Sequence record: NZ_CP044080.1
Strand: one strand, 5' to 3'
Length of the DNA stretch: 64,000 nt
From: a plasmid
Shown: positions 42,789-56,231 of the stretch, one piece after another
How the letters are laid out: each line of letters opens with the position of its first letter
How positions within the stretch are numbered: position 1 is the stretch's first letter
Notes under the pieces: model-generated
What the model was told of the DNA's origin: nothing
Database searches by the model: none
Seen by the model: only the letters and a program-made list of their open reading frames with translations
Program-made: the position numbers and the translations under genes

Positions 42789-43807
42789 GCCAGCACCACC
42801 GCGATATCCGACAGGGCGCGGCTGGAGCAGGCAAGGATATAGCCCTGGGCTTGCTCCTCGGGCGTGATGCCGCCATTCGCAGCCATCACTACCTGGCCCG
42901 AGACCAGCTTGACCATGCAGGTGCCGCACATGCCTTCGCCGCAGCCGCAGGGGATGATGACGCCGTGGCGCAGGCTGGCTTGCAGCACGCTTTCGTCGGG
43001 GCGGATCGCCACGTCGCGGCCGGCGACCGTCATCGCGAAAGCCGGGCCGTCTTGGGCCACGGGGGCCGGGGCCGCCACGGGAACCGGCGCCCCGCCAAAG
43101 CTTTCGGTATGGAACTGTGCCTTGTCGCCGCCCTCGGCCGCGTGGATCAGCTGCGCCTCGGTCATGAAGCCCTGGGGCCCGCAGCAGAACACCTCGCGCC
43201 GCCCCAGATCGGGCAGGGCAGCGGCCAGCAGGGTGCGCGAGATGCGGCCGCGATAGCCGAACCAGCCGGGCGCCGGTCGGGTGACGCTGACCGCCACGCT
43301 GAGGTTTGGCATCCGCGCCTGCAATTCGGCCAGTTCGGCGGCGAACAGCACCTCGGCCGGCGCGCGGGCGGCGTGGAACCAGGCCACATCGGCCAGCGGC
43401 TCGGTCGCCGCAAGATGGCGCAGCATGGCGATCATCGGCGTCGCCCCCGACCCGCCCGAGACGAAGGCCAGCCGGTCATGGCATCGCAGCGCCAGCGTGA
43501 AATGGCCGCGCGGGCTGCGCGCCTGGACCCGCGCGCCGGGGGTCAGGTTCGCGTGCAGCCAGCGCGTCGCGCCGCCCTCGGCCTGCGCCTTGATCGTCAG
43601 TGCCAGGTCGCCATCCGTCCCGCCCGAGATGGTGAAGCTCCGCCAGACCGGCCCGCCGGGCAGCGGCACCCGCAGCACCAGCGCCTGGCCGGGGACAAAG
43701 CCCACCGGCGCCGCGCCGCGCAGCCGAAAGCTGCGGATCGTCGGGGTTTCATCCGCCACGCCGACACAGGTCAGCTCCAGCAGTCCGGCGTCGCCTGGCA
43801 TGGTCAT
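42785..43807 (-). CDS. gbcB: Rieske-oxygenase reductase component (FNR-like FAD/NAD domain plus C-terminal 2Fe-2S ferredoxin), GbcB/CntB-like
   Basis: 340 aa with RSFTIS (RxYS-type FAD), an NAD fold (FVSGGSGATP) and C-terminal CGCGEGMCGTC 2Fe-2S cysteines. It is translationally coupled to the upstream Rieske gene. Confidence 0.8.
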   Translation of the reverse strand: MTMPGDAGLLELTCVGVADETPTIRSFRLRGAAPVGFVPGQALVLRVPLPGGPVWRSFTISGGTDGDLALTIKAQAEGGATRWLHANLTPGARVQARSPRGHFTLALRCHDRLAFVSGGSGATPMIAMLRHLAATEPLADVAWFHAARAPAEVLFAAELAELQARMPNLSVAVSVTRPAPGWFGYRGRISRTLLAAALPDLGRREVFCCGPQGFMTEAQLIHAAEGGDKAQFHTESFGGAPVPVAAPAPVAQDGPAFAMTVAGRDVAIRPDESVLQASLRHGVIIPCGCGEGMCGTCMVKLVSGQVVMAANGGITPEEQAQGYILACSSRALSDIAVVLA

Positions 43808-45036
43808 TCCGCCGCCATCCGCGCCGCCGGTCCGCCGATGTGATCGGCCATCTTGCCCGCATACCAGTCCGAGAAGTTCCGCAGCATGAATTCGGAGGGC
43901 GCATAGGGGCCGGGCTTGTAGGCGCGGGACAGGATGCCGCGATGGTTGTTCTCGGCCAGGATCCGGTCCTCGTCATTGGTGGCGGTCCAGACCTCGGTCA
44001 GGCGCTGGATGTCGTAATCGACGCCCTCGACGGCGTCTTCGTGGACCAGCCAGGTCGTCCTGACGGCGGTGCGGTTGGCCGACAGCGGCAGGACGCGGAA
44101 GTGGATGATGTGGTCGGACAGGAAATGGTTCCAGTTGTTCGGCACGCGGAACATCCGCACCGAGCCAAGGTCGGGTTCGGTGAAGTCGGCGAGCAGCTTG
44201 TTGCAGGCGAGCCCCCCGTCCATGGTGAAGGACAGGCAGTTTTCGTTGAAGGGCAGACGGATGCAGCGGAACTCCAGCCCGCCGTCGGCCGGCTTGTGCG
44301 GCAGGCCCAGCCGGTCCCAGCGGTCGGTCGAACGGCCCATCAGCCCTTGGAACTGCGCCGCCACCAGCGGGTCGTCGGGCAGCGCGAATTCGACCAGCGT
44401 GACCAGCAGTTCCGGGTGGTTGCCCGCGCAATGATAACATTCGCGGTTGTTTTCGATCACCAACTTCCAGTTCGCTTCCTCGACGATAGTGGTCGAAAAG
44501 GCGACCTTGGTGCGATCGGGCCTGTGCGGTTCGATATAGGGCGTGACGCCCGCGCGGAACGCGGCCAGCGACGGCGGCTGGTCGGCGATGCAGACATAGA
44601 CCATGCCGCAGATCACCTCGACATGGACCGGGGCAAGACCATGCGCGGCCTTGTCGAAACCCTCGGGCATCTGGCGGGCGTTGATCAGCCTGCCGTCCAG
44701 TTCATAGACCCACTGGTGATAGGGGCAGACCAGCCGGTTCGCGCGACCCTGTTCCTTCTGGCAGATCAGCGATCCGCGATGGCGGCAGGTGTTGTGGAAT
44801 GCCGCCACCGCGCCGTCGCGGTTGCGCAGCACAACGATGGGATTGTCGCCGATCTGCAGGGTGACATAGTCGCCCGGGCGCGGGATCTCGGCCAGGTTGC
44901 AGGCGAACAGCCAGTCGGTTTCGAACACCGCCTTCATGTCGGCCCGAAAGATCTCCTCATCGACATAGAAGTCGCGCGGCAGCGAATGGCCGGGTTTGCG
45001 GTCCTGCAAGAGCTGGGCGATCCTGTCGTTCAGCAT
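43804..45036 (-). CDS. gbcA: Rieske [2Fe-2S] non-heme-iron oxygenase, quaternary-amine N-demethylase family (GbcA / Stc2 / CntA-like)
   Basis: 410 aa with a Rieske CRHRGSLIC...CPYHQW motif, and a mononuclear Fe His-His-Asp region (NNRECYHCAGNHPEL). It is adjacent to the betaine-type ABC transporter. Confidence 0.8.
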   Translation of the reverse strand: MLNDRIAQLLQDRKPGHSLPRDFYVDEEIFRADMKAVFETDWLFACNLAEIPRPGDYVTLQIGDNPIVVLRNRDGAVAAFHNTCRHRGSLICQKEQGRANRLVCPYHQWVYELDGRLINARQMPEGFDKAAHGLAPVHVEVICGMVYVCIADQPPSLAAFRAGVTPYIEPHRPDRTKVAFSTTIVEEANWKLVIENNRECYHCAGNHPELLVTLVEFALPDDPLVAAQFQGLMGRSTDRWDRLGLPHKPADGGLEFRCIRLPFNENCLSFTMDGGLACNKLLADFTEPDLGSVRMFRVPNNWNHFLSDHIIHFRVLPLSANRTAVRTTWLVHEDAVEGVDYDIQRLTEVWTATNDEDRILAENNHRGILSRAYKPGPYAPSEFMLRNFSDWYAGKMADHIGGPAARMAAE

Positions 45037-45789: not shown

Positions 45790-46377
45790 CTAGCGAGATC
45801 GCTCCAGCCGGCGCAGCATGTCGTGCGACCAGGCATAGGCCGGATCAAGGCTCAGGGCGTGGCGAAAGGCGGCGCGGGCCTCGTTCCGGCGCCCCAGCGC
45901 GGTCAGGCACATGCCCAGGTTGTGGTGCACGACCGCCCGCCTGGCATCCAGCGCCAGCGCACGGCGGTAAAGCGGCAGCGCCTTGGCAGGGCGGTCCATG
46001 TCGTAAAGGACGTTCGCGGCCTCGTTCCATGCGGGTTCATAGGCCGGGTCAAGTCCCAGTGCCACGTCGAAGGCCGCCAAGGCCGGCACGAACCGCCGCA
46101 GGTCGCGTAGCACCAGGCCCAGATTGCCCCAGTTCATCGCACGGCGCGGCCCCAGCCGGATGGCGGCGGCAAAGGCCTCGTGCGCCTCGGCCATCCGGCC
46201 CTGGGTCCACAGCACCGAACCCAGGCCACGCCAAGCGTCCTCGCCCGCCAGTTGCGCACGAAATGCCGCCTCGGCCGCGTCCAGCCGGCCCGCCCGCCAC
46301 AGATCGAAGGCGTGGGCCAGGCCGGGGTCGGCGGGGCGCCAGCCCTCCCACGCCGTGGGCGGTCCGTCAGCCGGCAA
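45790..46377 (-). CDS. Tetratricopeptide-repeat protein (last gene of the rSAM/RiPP-like operon)
   Basis: 195 aa with about 5 TPR units (AEAHEAFAAAIRLGPRRAMNWGNLGLVL; AKALPLYRRALALDARRAVVHHNLGMCL). Its TTG start overlaps the upstream gene stop. Confidence 0.7.
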   Translation of the reverse strand: MPADGPPTAWEGWRPADPGLAHAFDLWRAGRLDAAEAAFRAQLAGEDAWRGLGSVLWTQGRMAEAHEAFAAAIRLGPRRAMNWGNLGLVLRDLRRFVPALAAFDVALGLDPAYEPAWNEAANVLYDMDRPAKALPLYRRALALDARRAVVHHNLGMCLTALGRRNEARAAFRHALSLDPAYAWSHDMLRRLERSR

Positions 46378-47005
46378 CGTGAAAGCACCCCGCCAGCATC
46401 ACCAGCCGTTCCCCGGCGGCCAGCGGCGGACGCAGATGCGCATGGCGCGAACCGAAGATCGCCGCCGCGCGATTGCTGCGCGCGGTCAGCCGCATCGCCA
46501 GTCCCGTGGCCGAGTTGTCGCCCCGAAAGATGAACAGCTGCATGCCGGGGCTGGGCTCGACCCCGTCGGGCCAGGCCGCGTCCAGATAGGTCAGCAGGTT
46601 GTATTTGCAGCTGTCGGCCTTGTCGCAATGCTCGCCCATGTGTTCGGAGGGGCCGGTGTATCGCGTGTAGCAGGTCGCGCTCCAGGACGGGGCGAGGCGT
46701 TCGCCGGTCAGCGCGTGCAGCCAGGCCACGACGGCGTCCGAGGACAGATAGCCCCGCGCGACGGGGCCCAGATGGGCGCGGCGGTTGTCCTGCGCGATCT
46801 CGCCCCGGTCGCGGCTGCCGGTCAGCTGCCAGCTTTCGGCATCAAGCTGACCCAGCGCTTCCTCCAGCAGGGCGCGGTGCAAGGCGGCGTTCAGCGCAGG
46901 GGGCCCAAGGACCGTGACGCCGGTGGCGCGGAAGGCGTCGACATGCGCCGGCCCAAGCGCGGAGGGGTCGGCGAAGACGGCGTCGGCAATGGGGGCGTCA
47001 GGCAT
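46367..47005 (-). CDS. Putative Fe(II)/2-oxoglutarate-dependent oxygenase-like protein (PhyH-like HxD...H), function unproven
   Basis: 212 aa with EHMGEHCDKAD (HxD) and downstream His residues (SRHAHL). It overlaps both neighbours in the operon (8-nt overlap with the HExxH gene). Confidence 0.5.
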   Translation of the reverse strand: MPDAPIADAVFADPSALGPAHVDAFRATGVTVLGPPALNAALHRALLEEALGQLDAESWQLTGSRDRGEIAQDNRRAHLGPVARGYLSSDAVVAWLHALTGERLAPSWSATCYTRYTGPSEHMGEHCDKADSCKYNLLTYLDAAWPDGVEPSPGMQLFIFRGDNSATGLAMRLTARSNRAAAIFGSRHAHLRPPLAAGERLVMLAGCFHVAG

Positions 47006-48194
47006 GGGCGGTCTCCTTCGGCAGGGCCTCGACGGCTTGGCGCAGGTCCTCCATCAGCCCGGCGCCGGCCGGGGTGGCGGTGCCGTTGTCGGACAGCACC
47101 CGCCAGCCCTGGCGCGTGTTCGCCGCCTGCCGGGCCAGCACCCCGCGCGCGAAGCGGGCCGAGGCCCCGCCCCGCGCCGCAAGCCGGTCATACCAGGCGC
47201 AGACGTTCAGAAAGGCGTGCACGCCCAGCAGCAGCCCGTCCAGCGGGCGCTTGTCGCTGCGCCAGGGGCTGTCAAAGCCCGCTGCCTCGGCTGCAGGGTC
47301 GGTCGCAACCACCAGCGGATCGACGGCCTTGGCCCAATGCATCCGCACATGGCTGGATTCGTGGCACAGGAGGTCGCCCACCGTTTCCGGCGCCCCCGCC
47401 GTCATCATGATCGTGCCGCAGAGCGATTGCGGCGAATGGCTGCGCTCATAGCCGCGCGGCGCCAGCAGGACCAGGCCCCGGACATGCCGCGCCAGCGTCT
47501 CGGCCGCCGCGGGCCAGACCTGCGCCATCAGCGCAAGGCCAGTCGCGATGCGGGCCATGGCGGCATGCAGCACCTCGCCCTCTGCCAGAGCGAAGGGCGC
47601 CAAGGCCGCCCGCACCGCAGGGTCGGCGTTCAGCACGTCAAGGCCGCCGATCCGGGGGGCTGCGTGGAACAGGGCGTTCCCGGTTCCGGGCGGTGCGGGG
47701 ATGCCGGTCGCGAAGGTTGCCGATACGCCGTCGTCGCGCATCAGCCCGACGCGGCCGCCGCTTTGGCGCAGGGCGATGACCCGCGCGCCGGGGGCGTGCA
47801 GGACGATGCGCAGATGCGGCAGCATCAGATCCGCCGCCAGATCGCCGCCGGTGAACACAAGGGTCAGATCCTCGATATCCGGGGCGCCGATCAGGTGGCG
47901 GGCCAGGGCTGCGCGTCGCTCGGCCAGGCTGCGCGGGTCCTTGACCCCGTCCGGCGCCGTGACCCCGGTATCGAGCGAGGCGAGCGGATGGCCAAAGACC
48001 CGCAGCCGCGCCGGTTCGGGGCAGGCCTTCAGGGCGCGCGCGACCTCGACCGCGCAGGGCTCGTCCGCGCCCTCCAGCATGTCCGCCGCGCGGCGCGCGC
48101 AATCCCGGGCCCAGAGCGCCTGCAGGTGGTCGATGCCCTGGCCGGGGGGGCCTGGAAAGACCAGCCCTGTCAGGTCGGATACCGGGCCGGTCAT
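46998..48194 (-). CDS. HExxH-motif protein of the kind associated with radical-SAM/SPASM peptide-modification cassettes (putative peptide hydroxylase)
   Basis: 398 aa with a single HESSH motif in the C-terminal third (LLCHESSHVRMHW). Its ATG overlaps the rSAM stop (ATGA). Confidence 0.7.
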   Translation of the reverse strand: MTGPVSDLTGLVFPGPPGQGIDHLQALWARDCARRAADMLEGADEPCAVEVARALKACPEPARLRVFGHPLASLDTGVTAPDGVKDPRSLAERRAALARHLIGAPDIEDLTLVFTGGDLAADLMLPHLRIVLHAPGARVIALRQSGGRVGLMRDDGVSATFATGIPAPPGTGNALFHAAPRIGGLDVLNADPAVRAALAPFALAEGEVLHAAMARIATGLALMAQVWPAAAETLARHVRGLVLLAPRGYERSHSPQSLCGTIMMTAGAPETVGDLLCHESSHVRMHWAKAVDPLVVATDPAAEAAGFDSPWRSDKRPLDGLLLGVHAFLNVCAWYDRLAARGGASARFARGVLARQAANTRQGWRVLSDNGTATPAGAGLMEDLRQAVEALPKETAHA

Positions 48195-49759
48195 GCCGCC
48201 ACCCGCGCGGGCGTGAAATCGTGCTGGAACCGCACGCCGCCCCCTTCGAAATAGGAACAGCGGTTCAGGTGGTCGAACGCCGCCGCGTCAAAGGACAGAA
48301 GATGCATCAGCCAGGGATAAAGCGTCTTGTAGAACGCACATTCCGGCGTCTTGTGGCGCACGGTCCCATAGCTTTCCCAGGCCTGCGCCGAACAGCCCGA
48401 CTGGCAGAGCTGCCGATAGGGGCAGACCGCACAATCGTCGAAATCCGCCGGCCGGCGGGACCGGATCTCGGCGATGCGGGCAGAGCGGCGGGCCGGCTGG
48501 GACAGGCTCTCGATGCCGTCGTCGAAGATGTTGCCCAGCCGCAAGCCCGGCGATTGCGTGGCCCGCCCGCAGGGATAGATATCGCCGTTCGCCGCGACGG
48601 ATTGAAAGCTGTCGCCCGCCCCGCACTCGGCCCGCATGCAGCGGGTGCGGCGCTGCTTGCTGGTCAGAAAGCGGCACATGGAATGGATGTTATCCTCAAG
48701 CAGCAGGTCGCGCCGTGCGATGACGCCGCGCAGCAGGGCCTGGAAGAACGCGATGATCTGGTCCTGGGTCAGCCCCACCCGGTCCCAGTTCTTGCGCGCG
48801 TCGCCCAGATAGGCGACCGGGTTCACCCGAAAGCCGTGGATCGCGTGCCCCAGCATAAAGGACACCAGCCCGTCGGGATCGCCGATGTTCATGCGGTTCA
48901 GCACCACGAGGCCCCCGAAGGGGACGCCGCCCTGCTGAAGCAGCTCGATCCCACGCATCAGCGCCGGAAAGCTGGCCTTGCCGTTCACCATGGGCCGCCC
49001 GCTGTTCTGCGCCTGCGCGCCCCCGTCCAGCGAGATGCCCACGCGGATGTCATTGTCGCGCAGCCAGTCCACGCGTTCGGGCGTCAGCAGCGTGGCATTG
49101 GTCTGGATCGACAGGAACACCGTCCGCCCGCTGGCCCCCGGGTGGTTGCGGATATGATCCACCAGCCGCTGCATGATCGCGAATTTCAGGAACGGCTCGC
49201 CCCCGGCGAATTCGAATGCCAGCACCCGCGCCTCGGTCATGGCAAAGGCCAGGTCGACCGAACGCAAAGCGATGGTTTCGTCCATCGCGGGCATCTTCTG
49301 GTTCGCGCCCGCCAGGCAATAGGGACAGGCGAGATTGCATTTCTCGGTCAGCAAAAGCTCGACCAGGTGGCCCTCGTCATAGTTCGGCCCGTCGGCGAAC
49401 ATCCCGGCATCGACCGCGCGGGCACCGTTCAGCGCGATCAGCCCGCGCCGCCACAGATGCGCCGCGAAATCCAGCGCGGCGTCGGCGCTGTCCATCCGGG
49501 CCGCCAGGGCGCCGAAATCCCGCCCGTCCATCCAGCGGTGCAACGCGGCCTCGTCCGGGTTCAGGAACGCCCATGAGGCGCTTTCGGGATGGATCGCCAG
49601 GGTCTCGCCCTGGACCCGGACCTGATCGACGCCCTCGGTCGACAGTCTTGTGTCAGGACGCAGCGTGACCTGGCCGAAGGGGGCATAGGTCTTGCCCTGG
49701 GTCGCGCCCAGCCAAGGCGCCTCGGCCGCGTCGCGAGAGGGACAAAAGACATAGCGCAT
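48191..49759 (-). CDS. Radical SAM/SPASM-domain peptide maturase with N-terminal PqqD-like RiPP recognition element
   Basis: The ATG at 49759 (MRYVF) overlaps the upstream stop (TGATG). It has rSAM CNLACPYCLAG, SPASM cysteines (CGAGDSF...YPCGR...CAVCPYRQLCQSGCSA...C) and an N-terminal ~90-aa RRE-like segment (ETLAIHPESASWAFLNPDEAALHRWMDGRDFGALAARM). Confidence 0.85.
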   Translation of the reverse strand: MRYVFCPSRDAAEAPWLGATQGKTYAPFGQVTLRPDTRLSTEGVDQVRVQGETLAIHPESASWAFLNPDEAALHRWMDGRDFGALAARMDSADAALDFAAHLWRRGLIALNGARAVDAGMFADGPNYDEGHLVELLLTEKCNLACPYCLAGANQKMPAMDETIALRSVDLAFAMTEARVLAFEFAGGEPFLKFAIMQRLVDHIRNHPGASGRTVFLSIQTNATLLTPERVDWLRDNDIRVGISLDGGAQAQNSGRPMVNGKASFPALMRGIELLQQGGVPFGGLVVLNRMNIGDPDGLVSFMLGHAIHGFRVNPVAYLGDARKNWDRVGLTQDQIIAFFQALLRGVIARRDLLLEDNIHSMCRFLTSKQRRTRCMRAECGAGDSFQSVAANGDIYPCGRATQSPGLRLGNIFDDGIESLSQPARRSARIAEIRSRRPADFDDCAVCPYRQLCQSGCSAQAWESYGTVRHKTPECAFYKTLYPWLMHLLSFDAAAFDHLNRCSYFEGGGVRFQHDFTPARVAA

Positions 49760-49761
49760 CA

Positions 49762-50622
49762 GGAGCTTCCTTGTAGAACAGGGACGAGGATGCGAACGCG
49801 GTCGCCATCGTGCCGAGGGCCGGGATGCCATCCGTCGGGGCCCAGGGCGATGTCGCGGCGCATCCGCGCCTCGATCCCGGCCAAAAGCGCGGGGGCCGTC
49901 CGCGCCAGCCCCCCGGCCAGACGCCGCGCGCGGGCAAGGCTGGTGGCGCAGGTCCAGGAACAGGGGAAATGTTCGGTCAGGACGGGACCGGCGTAGCGGG
50001 CAAAGACGTTCAACTCCCACGGCATCTCTGCCCCCTCCGGCCCCAGCCGCATCCGGCCCAGATCGCCCGCGCAATGCGTCACTGCCTGCGGCCAGTCGCG
50101 CAGGAACGCCTCGATGCAGCAGGGCGGATATCCCAGCGCAAGGCCCATGACCCGGTCCCAGCCCCGCGCCTCGGCCAGCCACAGCAGCCAGGCCAACGAC
50201 GCTGAGGCCGAGACGGCGACCGCCCGCCATTCCCCCGCCGCGCCGCTTGCCGGCACCCGCGCCGCGGCAAGGTTCGCATAGCCCCCCAGGCCCGCGTCCC
50301 GCTGGGGCAGGAAGGCCCAGGCCGAGGGCATGGCGGTCAGCGACCGCCGCCGCGCCCAGTCGCAGACGCCGGCGATCCAGGGCTCGGGCCCGTGCAGCAG
50401 GACTGCCGGCCGCAAGCCGGCGGCCAGCATCTCAAGCTCAGCCACGGTGCCGATGGGGGCGCCGGGCCCGGCCGCGGGGATGGCCGGGCCCGGCAGCTCG
50501 TCCTCGGGCCCATCCGGGATCGCGGCCAGCAGCGCGTCGGGCAGTCCCAGGGCCTGGGCACGGGCGCGCACCGACAGTCCCCCTTCGCCGGACCTTGGCG
50601 AGGGCGCTTTGGCGCGGTGCAT
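49762..50622 (-). CDS. Hypothetical protein with conserved-looking GYPPCC motif (DUF), second gene of the rSAM/RiPP-like operon
   Basis: 287 aa with four Cys in GYPPCCIEAF...HCAGD...CSWTC. It starts 7 nt after the precursor stop and ends in a TGATG overlap with the rSAM ATG. Confidence 0.55.
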
Positions 50623-50629
50623 GGGCGGC

Positions 50630-51256
50630 CTAGCGCCGGATGCGGGTGCCGCGCACCGTCATGTCAAAGGCCCCGGTCGCGGGCACATCGACGCGCAACC
50701 CGCCCGGCAGCGTGACCCGGGTCAGATCGCGGCCGGGGTTGAGGACCGTCGAGGGGTCGAAATTGGCATGCCCGCCCCCGTTCACGAAGCCCGGCGGCCC
50801 CGAGTTCACATGCGAGCCCGCAATCGAGCCGGGGTCGAAATTCGCGTGCCCGCCGCCGTTCACGAAACCGGGTGGGCCGGAATTCACATGCGTTCCCGTG
50901 CCCCCCGAGGGGTCGAAGTTCGCATGGCCCCCGCCGTTCACGAAGCCCGGAGGCCCCGAGTTGACATGCACCCCGGCAATCGAGCCGGGATCGAAGTTCG
51001 CGTGCCCGCCGCCGTTCACGAAACCGGGTGGGCCCGAATTGACATGCGCCCCCGAGATGCCGCCCGGATTGCGGATCGCGCCGATGGCGCTGGCCACCTC
51101 GGTGCGCAGGATCGCGGTCAGGTCCTTGAGCGAAAGATCCGCCAGCTTGGTCTCGGGCGCAAGCGACCTGCCTTGGGATGCAGGGCGGTCGGCCTCGGGA
51201 TCACTGCCTGGGGTCGTCGATTGGCCTTCCTTGGAACCCTTGGGTTCTTGTGCCAT
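50630..51256 (-). CDS. Candidate RiPP precursor: 70-aa leader, four tandem 20-aa cores HVNSGPPGFVNGGGHANFDP separated by 6-aa linkers, and a 40-aa C-terminal tail
   Basis: There is a good SD (GGAGA 7 nt before the ATG at 51256) and coding-like GC3. The repeats are identical at the peptide level while the DNA differs at synonymous sites. There is no Cys. It is the first gene of the operon, behind a 160-bp AT-richer promoter region. Confidence 0.7.
   Translation of the reverse strand: MAQEPKGSKEGQSTTPGSDPEADRPASQGRSLAPETKLADLSLKDLTAILRTEVASAIGAIRNPGGISGAHVNSGPPGFVNGGGHANFDPGSIAGVHVNSGPPGFVNGGGHANFDPSGGTGTHVNSGPPGFVNGGGHANFDPGSIAGSHVNSGPPGFVNGGGHANFDPSTVLNPGRDLTRVTLPGGLRVDVPATGAFDMTVRGTRIRR
50754..51046 (-). 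repeat. Tandem in-frame coding repeat (4 x 60 nt cores plus 18-nt linkers) inside the precursor gene
   Basis: Plus-strand units end in (c/g)acatg, period 78 nt. The peptide HVNSGPPGFVNGGGHANFDP is conserved in all four copies despite nucleotide substitutions (e.g. gggcatgccaat vs gggcacgcgaat). Confidence 0.8.
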
Positions 51257-51416
51257 GACTGAGTCTCCGTTTGCTTCAATAGAAAGTCCCAGATGTCGGA
51301 TGGATCTGGGCAGAGTCTTCCAGTCGAAAAATCACTGCAAACAGTTCGTTCAGATTACCCCAGAACAGGGATTCGAACAATCCCGCATCGCAGGCGCAAA
51401 GGCTTGCGCAGCGCCC

Positions 51417-52616
51417 CTATTGCCCGGCCGGGATCAGGGACGGATCGGCGGCCAGCGTCGTTCCGGGACTGGGCTGGGGCTCGGCGCCCTCTTCGAGTAC
51501 GCGGGCCGGCGCCGTCACCACGGCGCCCAGCGTGTGCAGCGTGCCGGCCGCGACCATGAAGATGCTGCCTCCAGAGCCGTTGTCGCTGGTCAGCCGCTGG
51601 CCCTGTGCCAGCTTGCGCCCGATCAGCCGCACGATGTCGGGGCTTTCGGCAAAGCGCGAATGGTGCGTGCCGCCCGGCACGTCGATCTGGCTCAGGTCGA
51701 TGGCGTCGATCCCCGCCTGCAGCAGGGCGGTGCGATAGGGTTCGCGCGAGGGGTCGATTTCGCCCACGCGCTCGACCCGACCCGCGATCAGCCGCGACAG
51801 ACCCAGTGCGCGGTCGTCCTTGGCCATGAAGATGGTGAAATGCGGGCGCGGGGCGGCCATTTCAATGAACTGGCGGGAAAACACCTCGATGTCGATATCG
51901 GGCGAGGCGAGGACCACGTCACGGATCTTGGGATTCACGGGGCCGCTGCGGATGCTCATCTGGCGCAGCGATTCCATGGTCAGGAAGGCGCCCATGGAAT
52001 GGGCCAGGATGGTGATCTGCGTGACCGAGGAGTCGTCCGCCAGGATTCGCAGCGACTGTTCCAGCGCGGTGCGGGAATAAAGCGCGCTTTCGCGGTCATA
52101 GTTATAGCCGACGGGGCTTCCACGCGACGGCCAGGTGAACAGGATCGGTGTCGCCGCCACATCGCCGTCATGCGCGATCTGGGCCAGCCGATAGACCGCC
52201 TCGCCATAGGTCGTGTTGAACCCGTGAACGAACAGCAGCACATGGCCGCCGACGCGGTGCTGGCGCATCCAGGCCCGGCCCTGCGCCACCGAACTGATGT
52301 CCTGCACCTGGCGGACGTGGAAATCGGTCGTCGGCTGGGGCGGACGGGTGCGCGGCCACTGGATCGTGCCACTGGGGCGGTTCGCGGGGATCCCCACCTT
52401 GACCGCGTCGAGATGCAACTGCGGGTCGCGCCGGCCGCCGTAACGCTCGGCCCGGTCGGTCAACATCTGGCGGTTGGTGGCCACCAGAACATCGACCGCA
52501 GGGCCGGTCTCGACCGGGGCCACGACCGGCTGCATCAGCCCGGTCGGCCGGGGCGAGCAGGCCGACAGCATTCCCGTCAGCAGGACCAGAAGGATCGCCA
52601 GCCGCACCGGCATCAA
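51417..52616 (-). CDS. Alpha/beta-hydrolase-fold lipoprotein (DUF900-like)
   Basis: 399 aa with a lipobox (LLTGMLSAC) and a GHSMG nucleophile elbow (ILAHSMGAF). Confidence 0.8.
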   Translation of the reverse strand: MMPVRLAILLVLLTGMLSACSPRPTGLMQPVVAPVETGPAVDVLVATNRQMLTDRAERYGGRRDPQLHLDAVKVGIPANRPSGTIQWPRTRPPQPTTDFHVRQVQDISSVAQGRAWMRQHRVGGHVLLFVHGFNTTYGEAVYRLAQIAHDGDVAATPILFTWPSRGSPVGYNYDRESALYSRTALEQSLRILADDSSVTQITILAHSMGAFLTMESLRQMSIRSGPVNPKIRDVVLASPDIDIEVFSRQFIEMAAPRPHFTIFMAKDDRALGLSRLIAGRVERVGEIDPSREPYRTALLQAGIDAIDLSQIDVPGGTHHSRFAESPDIVRLIGRKLAQGQRLTSDNGSGGSIFMVAAGTLHTLGAVVTAPARVLEEGAEPQPSPGTTLAADPSLIPAGQ

Positions 52617-52889
52617 GGCGACCCTGGTGGCAGCGGGGCGCAGCCGTGAAAGGTAAGGAAGGCGCGCCGGGGATGTGGGCCGCCAGGGGAAGCGGCCAGG
52701 GGGAGATCGCAGGGATGGCTGGTCACGGGCCGCCTCGAAATGGAAACAGTTGCCGGTGCTGTGGCCGGTCGCGGGGTCTTGCGCCCGGAGGTTACGTCAG
52801 GCTCGGCCGGTCCGTCCAGTCCCGGCGTGCTTGCGGGAACCGCGGTCCCGGACCCGGTTTTCGCTGCGACGCGCGTCCAGGCCCGCCGA

Positions 52890-53722: not shown

Positions 53723-54958
53723 TCAGGACGGGCCGGCCGGTGCGAGCTGCCGGGCAATCTGCGCGCCCGCCGCGCCCCAGCGGGCATGCAGGGCCGGGGC
53801 GCCGCCCTGCTGCCAGGACCGCCAGGCCTCGGCCGCCGGGATGCTGCCGAACCAGCCGATGCCCTGCGGCGCGGCGGGGGTATGCAGCACCTCGCGCTCG
53901 ACCAAAAGGCCGTCCTCGACCAGGATGGTGCGAGCGATGCGCGGGCGCTCGGGCGGTGGCAAGGCGGGCAGGTCGTCGGGAAAGTCCCGCCGCGCTGCCC
54001 AGAAGGGCTCGGCGCGAAAGCGTGGCTCGGCACGCAGGAAATCACGTCCGATCCGCGCCTGGTGCAGGCTGGTCTGCAGCGCCCGTTGCGTAAGGAAGCG
54101 GCGGCAAAGGGATTGCGCGCCGGGCCGGGCCGCCAGCGTGCGGCGCACGGCCGCGACGGCAAGCGCACTCGACACCGCCCAGAACTGGCCGTGGCCCGAA
54201 AGCGGGTCCATGGCAGCCAGGGCATCGCCGACGCGCAGCAGGTCCAATGCCCCGACCGGCCCGGGCAGGCGCGGCGCCGCCTCGCGCACCAGAGGCTGGC
54301 CGGAAAGCGGCGCATGAGCCAGCGCCGGCTCGGCCGCGGCCATGGCGGCTTGCAGCCGGCCAGCCGGGCTGCCGTCGCCGGCGGCGTCCAGCACCGCCTG
54401 GATCCAGACCCGTCCATCGGGCAACGCCACCCGCCACAGCCAGCCCTGCGGCAGCGCCACCAGCCGAATGCCGGGAGGCAGGTTGGCCCGCACCCAGCCG
54501 GACAGCGCCACCGTGGCCGGCGCCTTGCCGATGCTTGCACGCGCGCGGCGACCTCGCGCGTCGATGACCATGGGCGCGCGCAGTCTGTCGCTGCCCAGCC
54601 ACACGCCGCCCGGCTCGGGCCGGCCGCTGCCGATGGCCAGCCGAGCGCCAGCAGCCTGGGCGCAGCGGCGCAGATGGGCGTCCAGCGCAGCGCGCTCAAC
54701 CACATGTTCGGCATTGCTTTCGCTGACGCCCGCCCAGTCCACCTGCCGCCTGAACGGGCCGAAAATGCCGGCAAACCCGTCGATCAGCCCCTGGCCCGCC
54801 AGCCAACGGTGCAGGCGCGGGCTGAGCCCCTCGAGCCTCGGCCGGTCACGGGCGGGATCGATCAGCAGCACGCGCAGCCCGTCGCGCGCCGCAAGCCAGG
54901 CCGAAACCGCGCCTGCCGGCCCACCTCCCAGCACGATCAGATCGGCATCCGCGCCCAT
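53723..54958 (-). CDS. FAD-dependent monooxygenase (QhpG-like / tryptophan-halogenase-fold flavoprotein)
   Basis: 411 aa from the ATG at 54958 (MGADADLIVLGGGPAGAVSAWLAARDGLRVLLIDP). It is divergent from the qhpA-like gene; the QhpG assignment rests on context. Confidence 0.6.
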   Translation of the reverse strand: MGADADLIVLGGGPAGAVSAWLAARDGLRVLLIDPARDRPRLEGLSPRLHRWLAGQGLIDGFAGIFGPFRRQVDWAGVSESNAEHVVERAALDAHLRRCAQAAGARLAIGSGRPEPGGVWLGSDRLRAPMVIDARGRRARASIGKAPATVALSGWVRANLPPGIRLVALPQGWLWRVALPDGRVWIQAVLDAAGDGSPAGRLQAAMAAAEPALAHAPLSGQPLVREAAPRLPGPVGALDLLRVGDALAAMDPLSGHGQFWAVSSALAVAAVRRTLAARPGAQSLCRRFLTQRALQTSLHQARIGRDFLRAEPRFRAEPFWAARRDFPDDLPALPPPERPRIARTILVEDGLLVEREVLHTPAAPQGIGWFGSIPAAEAWRSWQQGGAPALHARWGAAGAQIARQLAPAGPS

Positions 54959-55172
54959 GCGCCGTTCCCTTTCCTTACCCTGCCTTGCCTGAATGAAAGG
55001 CACCTTGCGCCGGATTGCCGCCCGCGAACCTGACATTTGCGGCCAAAGCCACAGGGCGCGCGACGATGCGTCGCGACTCTGGCCGGGAATGACAAGAACC
55101 TGCCCGCCGCTGGCGCTTTTCTGGACCTCATCGCGATCGGGCCATTCCCGACAAGCCACAGGAAGCCGCCAG

Positions 55173-56227
55173 ATGAAGCCACTGACCCGAACCGCCCTGG
55201 TCTCTGCCGCCGCCCTTGCCGCCGCCCCGGCGCTGGCGGTCAGCGGCGAGGACGTCCTGCAAAACGCCTGCGCCGCCTGCCACGTCAAGCACGAAGACGG
55301 CCGGTGGGAACGCATCGACGCCGTCCGCAAGACGCCCGAGGGCTGGGACATGACGGTGACGCGGATGATGCGCAATCACGGCGTCGCGCTGGAACCGCAA
55401 GAGCGGGCGGCTGTGGTCCGCTACCTGTCCGACACCCGCGGTCTGACGCCCGAAGAAGCCGAGGGGCGCCGCTATATCCTGGAACGCGAACCAGTGGCCT
55501 TCGACGAGGGTCCCGATACGCTGATGACCCAAACCTGCGGCCGATGCCATTCCTATGCCCGCGTCGCCCTGCAACGCCGCACGCCCGAGGATTGGGCGCA
55601 TCTGGTGAACTTCCACCTGGGCCAGTTCCCGACGCTGGAATACCAGGCGCTGGCGCGGGATCGCGACTGGTGGGGCATCGCCCAGGCCGAGATCATTCCC
55701 TTCCTCGCCAAGACCTATCCGCTGGGCGAGGCGCCGCCCGCCTTTGCCGGCGACGCTTCGGGCGACTACGTCCTGGCTGGGCGCCAGCCGGGGCGTGGCG
55801 ACTATACCGGACGGCTGGCGCTGACGAAAGCGGGTGACGATTACGCCGTGACCATGACGCTGGACTTCGCCGACGGCAGCGCAAGCTACAAGGGCACCGG
55901 CCGCATCCTGGGCGCCGGCGAATGGCGCGCGACGCTGAGCGACGGCAAGACCGGGATCCGCCAGGTCCTTGTTTTTCACGACGGCCGCTTCGACGGGCGC
56001 TGGTACCACGCCGACAGCGACGTGATCGGCGGCAGACTGGCGGCGGTGACGATGCGGGGCTTTTTACGCCAGGCGACGCCGGGCCGAACCCGGAACGCCC
56101 GATGCAGACCAACAACGCGGGCAACCTGAAGGTCATCGCCACCGTGGACACGGGTGGCGTGCCGCTGACCGCCGAGGCGCATCTTTACGCCACGGTTCAG
56201 CGCTTTGTCGACGCGCCGATCCGGTGA
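55173..56227 (+). pseudogene. Quinohemoprotein amine dehydrogenase alpha-subunit (QhpA)-like gene, shortened and frameshifted
   Basis: Signal peptide plus a di-haem c domain (CAACH, CGRCH). The frame breaks near 56060-56100 and continues in another frame (MQTNNAGNLKVIATVDTGGVPLTAEAHLYATVQRFVDAPIR) to the TGA at 56225. The total of about 350 aa is far shorter than typical ~500-aa QhpA. Confidence 0.6.
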
Positions 56228-56231
56228 CGCC

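Follow-up and report, generated by a model that had tools for sequence, protein, structure and literature searches.

A rare six-gene cassette built around a candidate precursor with repeated aromatic-x-Asn modules

Gene A and its array of identical modules

The 64,000 nucleotides of plasmid DNA analysed here (sequence record NZ_CP044080.1, in the following the window) contain, on the minus strand, an operon of six genes, A to F, that overlap or abut each other over 5.5 kb, with the gene of a putative precursor peptide, gene A, in first position. An earlier note, made from the sequence alone, had described gene A as the precursor of a peptide made by the ribosome and modified after translation (RiPP) with several cores, and the translation of 50630-51256 on the minus strand has exactly the anatomy given there: a leader of 70 amino acids, four identical 20-mers (HVNSGPPGFVNGGGHANFDP) at residues 71-90, 97-116, 123-142 and 149-168, linkers of six amino acids between them (GSIAGV, SGGTGT and GSIAGS) and a tail of 40 amino acids (STVLNPGRDLTRVTLPGGLRVDVPATGAFDMTVRGTRIRR). 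Gene A is very probably the substrate of the six-gene cassette; its features are:

51265..51268, minus strand: Shine-Dalgarno sequence GGAG, 9-12 nt 5' of the ATG, read from the sequence
50630..51256, minus strand: gene A, precursor or substrate, 208 amino acids plus stop, named hypothetical protein in RefSeq
51047..51256, minus strand: leader, residues 1-70; residues 1-35 variable and rich in Lys, Pro, Glu and Ser, residues 38-61 conserved
51074..51145, minus strand: conserved leader segment LADLSLKDLTAILRTEVASAIGAI, residues 38-61, defined by conservation in the alignment
50987..51046, minus strand: module 1, HVNSGPPGFVNGGGHANFDP, residues 71-90, from the translation and a skeleton that is invariant in the family
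50909..50968, minus strand: module 2, residues 97-116, on the same basis
50831..50890, minus strand: module 3, residues 123-142, on the same basis
50753..50812, minus strand: module 4, residues 149-168, on the same basis
50633..50752, minus strand: C-terminal follower, residues 169-208, with the family motif VTLPGGLRVDVPATGAFDMTVRGTRIRR-COOH; a tail of 35-43 amino acids with this motif is found in most relatives

Gene A is genuine, and purifying selection acts on it. Any two of the four 60-nt cores differ at 4-11 positions, and all of these differences are synonymous changes at third codon positions of the minus-strand frame; thus, selection has acted on the peptide and not on the DNA repeat, and a meaningless open reading frame (ORF) over a DNA repeat is ruled out. 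The G+C content at third codon positions is 0.82, similar to that of the neighbouring genes, and on a sister plasmid RefSeq calls the identical ORF, as hypothetical protein. Tandem Repeats Finder describes the array either with a period of 78 (3.9 copies, score 343) or with a period of 156 (1.9 copies, 90% identity, score 498); the array is thus a unit of two modules that was duplicated. Two plus-strand ORFs that run across the array (50330-51262 and 50640-52649) were rejected as antisense artefacts of a GC-rich genome, the repeat copies being different in amino acid sequence in these frames.

A scan for promoters and terminators found no sigma-70-like promoter in the 160-nt intergenic region upstream of gene A, and terminator-like sites only at or below the frequency expected by chance. 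A perfect inverted repeat (CCCAGAT-N9-ATCTGGG, 51288-51310) lies 32-54 nt 5' of the ATG and could be an operator or a hairpin in the 5' untranslated region.

The precursor family and the distribution of the cassette

The precursor family is genuine, though rare: among 5.8 billion proteins, a word-indexed search identified 85 homologues, all unnamed, and an exhaustive hidden Markov model scan of 1.84 billion cluster representatives identified 55 representatives at E<=1e-3. Homologues of varying repeat number, to which the earlier note had looked as a check, are present: about 100 homologous precursors have between one and five modules each, and 218 of the 278 modules of the family are the exact 20-mer of the window. 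Across 111 distinct module instances, H1, N3, G5, P6, N11, H15, N17 and F18 are invariant and position 9 is either F or H; these statistics are from a fuzzy scan that allowed at most 9 substitutions. The result is a skeleton of 18 residues, H-x-N-x-G-P-x-x-(F/H)-x-N-x-x-G-H-A-(N/D)-F, which in the remoter relatives reads H-x-N-x-G-P-x-x-H-x-N-x-x-G-H-A-(N/D)-F. Each window module thus has three aromatic-x-Asn triads (H-V-N, F-V-N and H-A-N), and the middle residues of the triads vary within the family (V/A/T in the first, V/A/T/I/E/D in the second and A/S/G in the third). Since it is the skeleton that is conserved across the family, the unit of selection is a set of three aromatic-x-Asn(Asp) triads at fixed spacing. 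The modules have no Cys, Trp, Tyr or Lys.

What surrounds this skeleton is less constant. The earlier note had taken a terminal Asp-Pro as the end of every core; Asp-Pro does end about 94% of the modules of the close family, but it does not define the core end, as relatives end their modules in FLR, FNQ, FTS, FSK, HADFT and similar sequences. The linkers range from 1 to 40 residues across the family and have no conserved cleavage motif, some modules directly abut with linkers of only 1-2 residues, and small residues (G/A followed by S/V/A) stand just ahead of nearly every module.

Several relatives deserve separate mention. One of them (P0002) has leader and tail as in the window protein yet two modules instead of four, and module copy number is thus polymorphic among near-identical sequences; in another (P0001, 99% identical), the central aromatic residue of module 1 is changed from Phe to Val. 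Two relatives have foreign sequence N-terminal to the leader, which is a LysM domain (PF01476) for P0045 and a CobT-like fragment (PF06213) for P0073, and retain modules and tail. In P0077, the part that follows module 1 contains an Arg-rich stretch out of frame; the sequence appears to be frameshifted or chimeric there and was left out of the module statistics.

Over the precursor match, the window is 100% identical to plasmid pYEE46822P13 of Paracoccus yeei CCUG 46822, and 5.7 kb are shared, with about 98% identity, by three other P. yeei plasmids. A survey of 185,579 species, with one genome per species, found 13 cassette loci: in P. yeei, in two metagenome-assembled genomes (MAGs) of Marinobacter and one of Nitrospira, in seven Nitrosospira or Nitrosovibrio, and in one MAG each of the Sphingomonadaceae and the Acidobacteria. 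Nitrifiers (Nitrosospira, Nitrosovibrio and Nitrospira; loci L007-L014) make up 8 of these 13 species-level genomes. The six genes have a constant order at every locus that is long enough, in Alpha-, Beta- and Gammaproteobacteria, in Nitrospira and on several metagenome contigs; the Acidobacteria contig stops after gene C. Of the independent loci, 15 are long enough to show how A, B and C are arranged, and the order is A-B-C in all of them; the products of gene C are 56-75% identical across loci. The phyletic pattern is patchy and the cassette of P. yeei is plasmid-borne, which together suggests horizontal transfer. A lipoprotein hydrolase gene of the DUF900 family (51417-52616), 5' of gene A, was considered as a further member and rejected, as it is not found beside the cassette elsewhere.

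The repeats are therefore conserved jointly with the flanking enzymes, as the earlier reading of gene A as a precursor had demanded. Gene A could in principle encode an ordinary repeat protein, or be a spurious ORF over a tandem repeat, beside unrelated enzymes, and it is true that it has no match (0 families) among the Pfam and NCBIfam models. We regard this as extremely improbable: the repeats diverge by synonymous changes only, the modules are near-identical across phyla while the leaders are less than 40% identical, the five partner genes are strictly syntenic with gene A wherever the locus is long enough, the adjoining radical S-adenosylmethionine (SAM) enzyme carries a predicted domain for leader recognition (see below), and homologues of gene B are essentially confined to the cassette. 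The leaders have diverged, but the module has stayed near-invariant in organisms as different as Paracoccus, Nitrosospira, Nitrospira, Marinobacter and Acidobacteria, which indicates that its molecular target or ligand is conserved and speaks against an arms-race antibiotic. Ammonia and nitrite oxidisers are enriched among the hosts, and some precursors are the signal-peptide variants described below; both point to a physiological role, possibly in metal handling, in environmentally important organisms. A literature search returned no paper on a radical SAM precursor peptide in Nitrosospira and nothing relevant on RiPPs of Paracoccus yeei.

Partner proteins and the proposed chemistry

The five genes downstream of gene A, and the one domain within them that was defined by structure prediction, are:

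49759..50622, minus strand: gene B, DUF483-like Cys-rich protein, 287 amino acids, family-specific, with invariant GYPxCC...HFPC...C
48191..49759, minus strand: gene C, radical SAM/SPASM peptide maturase, 522 amino acids, with the Pfam domains Radical_SAM, Fer4_12 and SPASM
49430..49669, minus strand: RRE-like (PqqD-fold) domain of gene C, about residues 31-110, predicted from an AlphaFold2 model and a fold search
46998..48194, minus strand: gene D, alpha-ketoglutarate (aKG)-HExxH-type peptide beta-hydroxylase, 398 amino acids, with TIGR04267 and HESSH at residues 278-282
46367..47005, minus strand: gene E, probable 2-oxoglutarate (2OG)-Fe(II) oxygenase, 212 amino acids, with H126-x-D128 ... 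H190-x-R192
45790..46377, minus strand: gene F, tetratricopeptide repeat (TPR) protein, 195 amino acids, with Pfam TPR_1, TPR_2, TPR_8 and others; the last gene of the cassette

Precursor, B and E belong to no curated family, and the RefSeq gene names are generic only.

The product of gene C has a CxxxCxxC motif at residues 142-149 and a CX2CX5CX3C SPASM motif, and thus the full SPASM cysteine set (numbers refer to the 523-codon translation of 48191-49762; in the 522-residue protein, with its ATG at 49759, they are lower by one). N-terminal to the CxxxCxxC motif is an extension of some 135 residues. Pfam recognises no PqqD domain or RiPP recognition element (RRE) in this extension and a profile of the domain gave only noise against Protein Data Bank (PDB) sequences, but AlphaFold2 models residues 31-110 as four strands followed by three helices with a pLDDT of 87-97, from a shallow alignment (the homologue search with its profile gave 7 fragments), and a fold search with the model detected an RRE of PqqD-like fold. 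The model thus supports that the N-terminus of the enzyme folds as an RRE and that it recognises a leader. In gene A, the corresponding recognition sequence is probably the leader segment of residues 38-61: in an alignment of 22 precursors, L41, L46 and E53 show little or no variation, and the N-terminus has no consensus. The earlier note had proposed that an amphipathic leader segment is the RRE-binding helix; its choice of segment stands, in that residues 38-61 are the conserved part and an RRE is predicted in the N-terminus of the radical SAM enzyme, and as to the helix, many RiPP leaders bind their RREs as a strand.

Gene D matches TIGR04267 (IPR026337) with 89.6 bits over residues 218-383, well above the cut-off of 40, its relatives in the PDB are 22nu and ChlH (8s5f), and RefSeq names it 'HEXXH motif-containing putative peptide modification protein'. 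In gene E, H126-x-D128 and H190-x-R192 are invariant in 11 orthologues, of which 5 have a sub-threshold Pfam match to 2OG-FeII_Oxy_3 and 7 to Oxy_4 (best E-value 3.8e-4); no sequence match was found in the 2026 copy of the PDB, in which the presence of the MicC entry 9VKM is unconfirmed.

Gene B is the most peculiar of the partners. The window protein scores 16 bits against the Pfam model DUF483 and is thus below the cut-off of 25, but all 12 of 12 orthologues match DUF483 weakly around GYPxCC (best E-value 2.9e-4), and one metagenomic homologue has a precomputed match to PF04467. Its profile returned only noise from PDB sequences and its structural matches were not significant; a literature search for DUF483 gave only prefix matches to other domains of unknown function. 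The protein has 287-297 amino acids in Paracoccus and Marinobacter and 326-386 in Nitrosospira, Nitrospira and Acidobacteria; the longer forms are due to a C-terminal extension of about 40-90 residues, and the N-terminus is lineage-specific too (orthologue alignment, columns ~330-400).

This combination is what generic radical SAM/SPASM RiPP systems have: a short ORF that is conserved jointly with a radical SAM/SPASM enzyme and an RRE in a biosynthetic protein. The modules narrow the chemistry further. Triceptides are defined by Omega1-X2-X3 motifs, with an aromatic-to-C-beta cyclophane and Omega being Trp, Phe, Tyr or His, and His motifs among them are HAA, HNR and HTK (PMC11499958). Three such motifs are found in each module across the 111 distinct instances, with Omega and N invariant and X2 variable. 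It is this invariant pairing of an aromatic residue with Asn/Asp at i/i+2 around a free middle residue, with an aKG-HExxH enzyme as partner, that suggests triceptide-type logic. In known systems, the cyclophane synthase YhhB is paired with YhhC, which forms beta-hydroxy-Asp (PMC12186529), and ChlBH, an HExxH enzyme fused to a radical SAM enzyme, adds hydroxyl groups to Asp and His once the cyclophane is in place, according to a paper that cites this work (PMC12636437). MicA has three Omega1-X2-X3 motifs, and the aKG enzyme MicC removes its follower (PMC12912966). The aKG-HExxH enzymes PflC and PosC cleave peptide backbones oxidatively (PMC12636437). Thioether, Lys-Trp and daropeptide chemistries were rejected, because the modules offer no Cys, Trp, Tyr or Lys as substrate.

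The best explanation, to which we assign a probability of roughly 0.5, is that gene A is a ribosomally made substrate whose triads are cross-linked by the radical SAM enzyme and then hydroxylated. Leader residues 38-61 would dock on the RRE of gene C, which would then cross-link the three aromatic-x-Asn triads of each module, the likeliest product being a three-residue cyclophane between the His or Phe ring and the C-beta of Asn; each module would then have three rings, and the window protein as many as 12. The HExxH enzyme D and the second oxygenase E would hydroxylate beta-carbons of Asn, Asp or His, and either could also cut the backbone oxidatively and so trim tail or linkers. The product would be a rigid array with many His and hydroxy-Asx residues and with a probable role in metal binding or another function that involves a conserved target. 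Not all parts of this proposal are equally secure: judged from their sequence pattern, the triads are rather likely to be the sites of modification, and that the links are C-C cyclophanes, by analogy with triceptides, has slightly less than an even chance. If this chemistry is true, a single enzyme forms as many as twelve strained His/Phe-Asn rings in a small protein, and the conserved follower takes part together with three partner proteins that are uncharacterised, one of them lacking a relative of solved function. The cassette further shows that a DUF483-like protein may be part of a peptide-modification pathway.

Several observations weigh against this explanation. By the NCBIfam scores, the product of gene C falls outside every curated maturase family (scores/cut-offs are 151/450 for DynA, 150/340 for PapB, 135/349 for anSME and 129.6/370 for HxsB), and this includes the enzymes that form three-residue cyclophanes (3-CyFEs), as all cyclophane-synthase models are below their cut-offs too (AmcB 93.7/425, GrrM/OscB 86.1/310, YhhB 74.1/445, WgkB 70/650); XyeB and FxsB are not among its top 25 NCBIfam models. 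As a control, the unrelated QhpD, encoded 6 kb away in the window, scores 600 bits on its own model, with a cut-off of 453. The nearest PDB sequences are CteB, anSME and the radical SAM domain of ChlB, and the enzyme is nearer to the thioether-forming CteB (64.8 bits) than to the ChlB domain (34.9 bits). Gene E, judged by its motif and its weak matches, is a probable and not a certain second Fe/2OG oxygenase. The invariant F18 and the G-P and G spacers are not explained by a simple model of three triads, and linkages of another kind, for example from His N to C-beta as in dynobactin, are possible; gene B, a family-specific gene whose product has four invariant cysteines, could itself carry out the defining chemistry. 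Finally, a full-text literature search found the module sequence in no paper.

Some of these observations would fit a different defining chemistry of the radical SAM enzyme, of B or of both, for example His N-C or ether cross-links, modification of Phe18, epimerisation or methylation. The absence of the radical SAM enzyme from all curated families, with DynA as its top NCBIfam model, and the presence of F18, G5-P6 and G14, which triads alone leave unexplained, speak for such a chemistry, as does the very weak resemblance of B to the NleE Cys-methyltransferase fold, which is, however, one of the non-significant structural matches. We still consider it rather unlikely, because the i/i+2 spacing of aromatic residue and Asn around a free middle residue, three times per module, fits triceptide logic best (PMC11499958), and triceptide clusters typically pair their maturase with an aKG-HExxH enzyme (PMC12636437).

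Tail, processing and relation to known systems

The earlier note had called the long C-terminal follower atypical; this is contradicted by the family, about 85% of which has such a tail, 35-43 residues long and marked by (V/L)TLPDGxxVxxPAxGPxDxxVRGFxIxR-COOH. From the way in which hydrophobic residues alternate in it, the tail may form short beta-strands. About ten relatives start instead with a typical Sec-type signal peptide (K/R in the n-region, a hydrophobic core and AxA) and have neither the amphipathic leader segment nor a tail; signal peptide and tail were never found together in one precursor. This sub-branch comprises P0080-P0083, P0137, P0143-P0145, P0150, P0155 and P0157. Downstream of one signal-peptide relative (P0083; locus L018, 8001-12014) come B, C with the RRE region at its N-terminus and the first part of D, where the contig ends, and one tail-less relative (P0084; locus L019) has a complete B-F cassette downstream. 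As tail-less and signal-peptide relatives keep the cassette genes, the tail is a conserved but replaceable accessory, perhaps with a role in handling, docking or localisation outside the modified unit. The signal-peptide sequences suggest a periplasmic, possibly metal-binding product.

These relatives bear on the fate of the product. The earlier note had suggested the release of four identical modified 20-mers, cut out for example at Asp-Pro, that act as free peptides. The four window modules are indeed identical and each ends in Asp-Pro, as do most modules of the close family, and the small residues ahead of nearly every module speak for this model as well. Protease and exporter, however, are conserved neither in nor beside the cassette at any of the loci compared. 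Linkers of such variable length have no conserved flanking recognition site and are in places almost absent, and relatives that keep the cassette replace DP by LR, NQ, TS, SK, T, S and others; the acid lability of Asp-Pro is a chemical artefact and no known biosynthetic route. Conserved flanking cleavage sites and a dedicated protease, by which multi-core release is recognised, are thus found neither in the family nor at the loci compared. Oxidative cleavage of the kind described for PflC/PosC (PMC12636437) and MicC (PMC12912966) would allow the cassette to cut without a protease, and such activity of D or E would explain why a protease is missing. Because Asp-Pro and the linkers are variable and the cassette has no conserved protease or exporter, release of free 20-mers is a conjecture, which we consider unlikely.

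The same data can be read as evidence for a modified protein that stays uncut, a string of one to five rigid His-rich modules that for example binds or buffers metal and is cytoplasmic in its tailed and periplasmic in its signal-peptide form. The lack of a conserved protease, the modules that directly abut, the Sec-type N-termini of about ten relatives (with B, C and the start of D retained in P0083) and the three invariant His/Phe and three invariant Asn/Asp of each module are all consistent with it. So is the share of nitrifiers among the genome loci, as these organisms depend heavily on Cu and Fe enzymes. Metal binding, at which the earlier note had hinted from the richness in His, Asn and Asp, is plausible. 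No metal-related gene, however, is conserved beside the cassette, the proposed function is purely inferred, and the characterised triceptides are all proteolytically matured (PMC12912966); we therefore regard an uncut product as possible, but with clearly less than an even chance. Less probable again is the most far-reaching combination, a new class of RiPPs or modified proteins in which the three-triad module is cross-linked and hydroxylated into a multi-copy metal chelator with His imidazoles and beta-hydroxy-Asn/Asp as ligands. If it were true, the product would be a ribosomal poly-metallophore or metal buffer, especially in nitrifying bacteria, B would represent a new enzyme or chaperone that defines the class, and the conserved beta-rich tail and the Sec signal peptide would be alternative devices for localisation or handling.

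Of the system proposed here, a substrate cross-linked at its triads and then hydroxylated, the enzyme logic is known: a radical SAM/SPASM enzyme with an RRE, paired with an aKG-HExxH enzyme. New are the fixed three-triad module in one to five copies, the follower that alternates with a signal peptide, the DUF483-like partner and the taxonomic pattern.

Closest in logic are ChlA with ChlB/ChlBH and YhhA with YhhB/YhhC, which combine a radical SAM/SPASM enzyme with an aKG-HExxH enzyme and have aromatic-X-X triads that include His (HNR in YhhA); Asp/His beta-hydroxylation follows cyclophane formation in these systems (PMC11499958, PMC12636437, PMC12186529). The window cassette differs in that radical SAM and HExxH enzyme are separate genes and not fused as in ChlBH, and in that its radical SAM enzyme is only distantly related (74 bits with a cut-off of 445 on the YhhB model, a weak 34.9-bit alignment to ChlB). 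X3 is always Asn/Asp and three triads form a fixed 18-residue module that is repeated one to five times. The cassette, whose chemistry is putative, also adds the family-specific B (DUF483-like), E and F.

GrrA/OscA, modified by GrrM/OscB, is similar in having a Gly-rich repeat precursor with a cross-link motif in each repeat and a single radical SAM/SPASM enzyme (TIGR04261 description; PMC11499958), and OscB modifies Phe motifs (PMC11499958). The window proteins belong neither to this family nor to HxsA: the precursor matches 0 NCBIfam families, the radical SAM enzyme has 86.1 bits (cut-off 310) on the GrrM model and 129.6 bits (cut-off 370) on the HxsB model, and module, tail and accessory genes differ from those of GrrA/OscA.

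The minviopeptin system MicA-D has three Omega1-X2-X3 motifs (YSK, HAS, FTK) per core and a cluster without protease, and its MicC, an aKG-dependent non-haem-iron enzyme once annotated as hypothetical, oxidatively removes the C-terminal follower (PMC12912966). MicA, however, has a single unrepeated core and a follower of 7 residues, in contrast to the conserved segment of about 38 residues in the window family, and the window cassette has no ADP-ribosyltransferase.

The best NCBIfam model for the radical SAM enzyme of the window, DynA, belongs to dynobactin, but its 151 bits are one third of the cut-off of 450. DynA makes a C-C bond that joins an aromatic ring to the C-beta of Asn (Trp-Asn) and a link from His-N to the C-beta of Tyr. 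Daropeptide maturases and 3-CyFEs have a common origin (PMC12912966). Unlike dynobactin and the daropeptides, the window modules have no Trp or Tyr, and the precursor architecture is unrelated.

Cyanobactin-type precursors also have several cores in strain-variable numbers, as seen here with four modules in the window protein and two in P0002. They have conserved recognition and cleavage sequences on either side of each core and dedicated proteases, whereas the flanks are variable in the window family and the cassette has no protease. Bufferins resemble those relatives that replace leader helix and tail by a Sec-type signal peptide. They are signal-peptide-bearing and are made by multinuclear non-haem iron-dependent oxidative (MNIO, DUF692) enzymes that act on Cys; the window cassette has no MNIO and its modules no Cys.

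A second, unrelated radical SAM peptide-maturation system lies 2.5-7 kb from gene A, among the quinohemoprotein amine dehydrogenase genes at 53723-57584:

53723-55375, minus strand: QhpG, 403 bits
54993-56129, plus strand: quinohemoprotein amine dehydrogenase alpha subunit, 344 bits, profile positions 6-288 of 510
56205-57584, plus strand: QhpD, 600 bits (cut-off 453), profile positions 1-384 of 467

Judged by their partial profile cover, the ORFs of the alpha subunit and of QhpD may be truncated or frameshifted in the window strain. On the other side of the cassette, just past the TPR gene, is a GbcA-like Rieske oxygenase gene (43804-45036, minus strand; 526 bits on the glycine-betaine monooxygenase model, with a cut-off of 670). 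A GbcA-like Rieske gene also adjoins the cassette at an unrelated metagenome locus (L002, 15619-16770), which may be coincidence.

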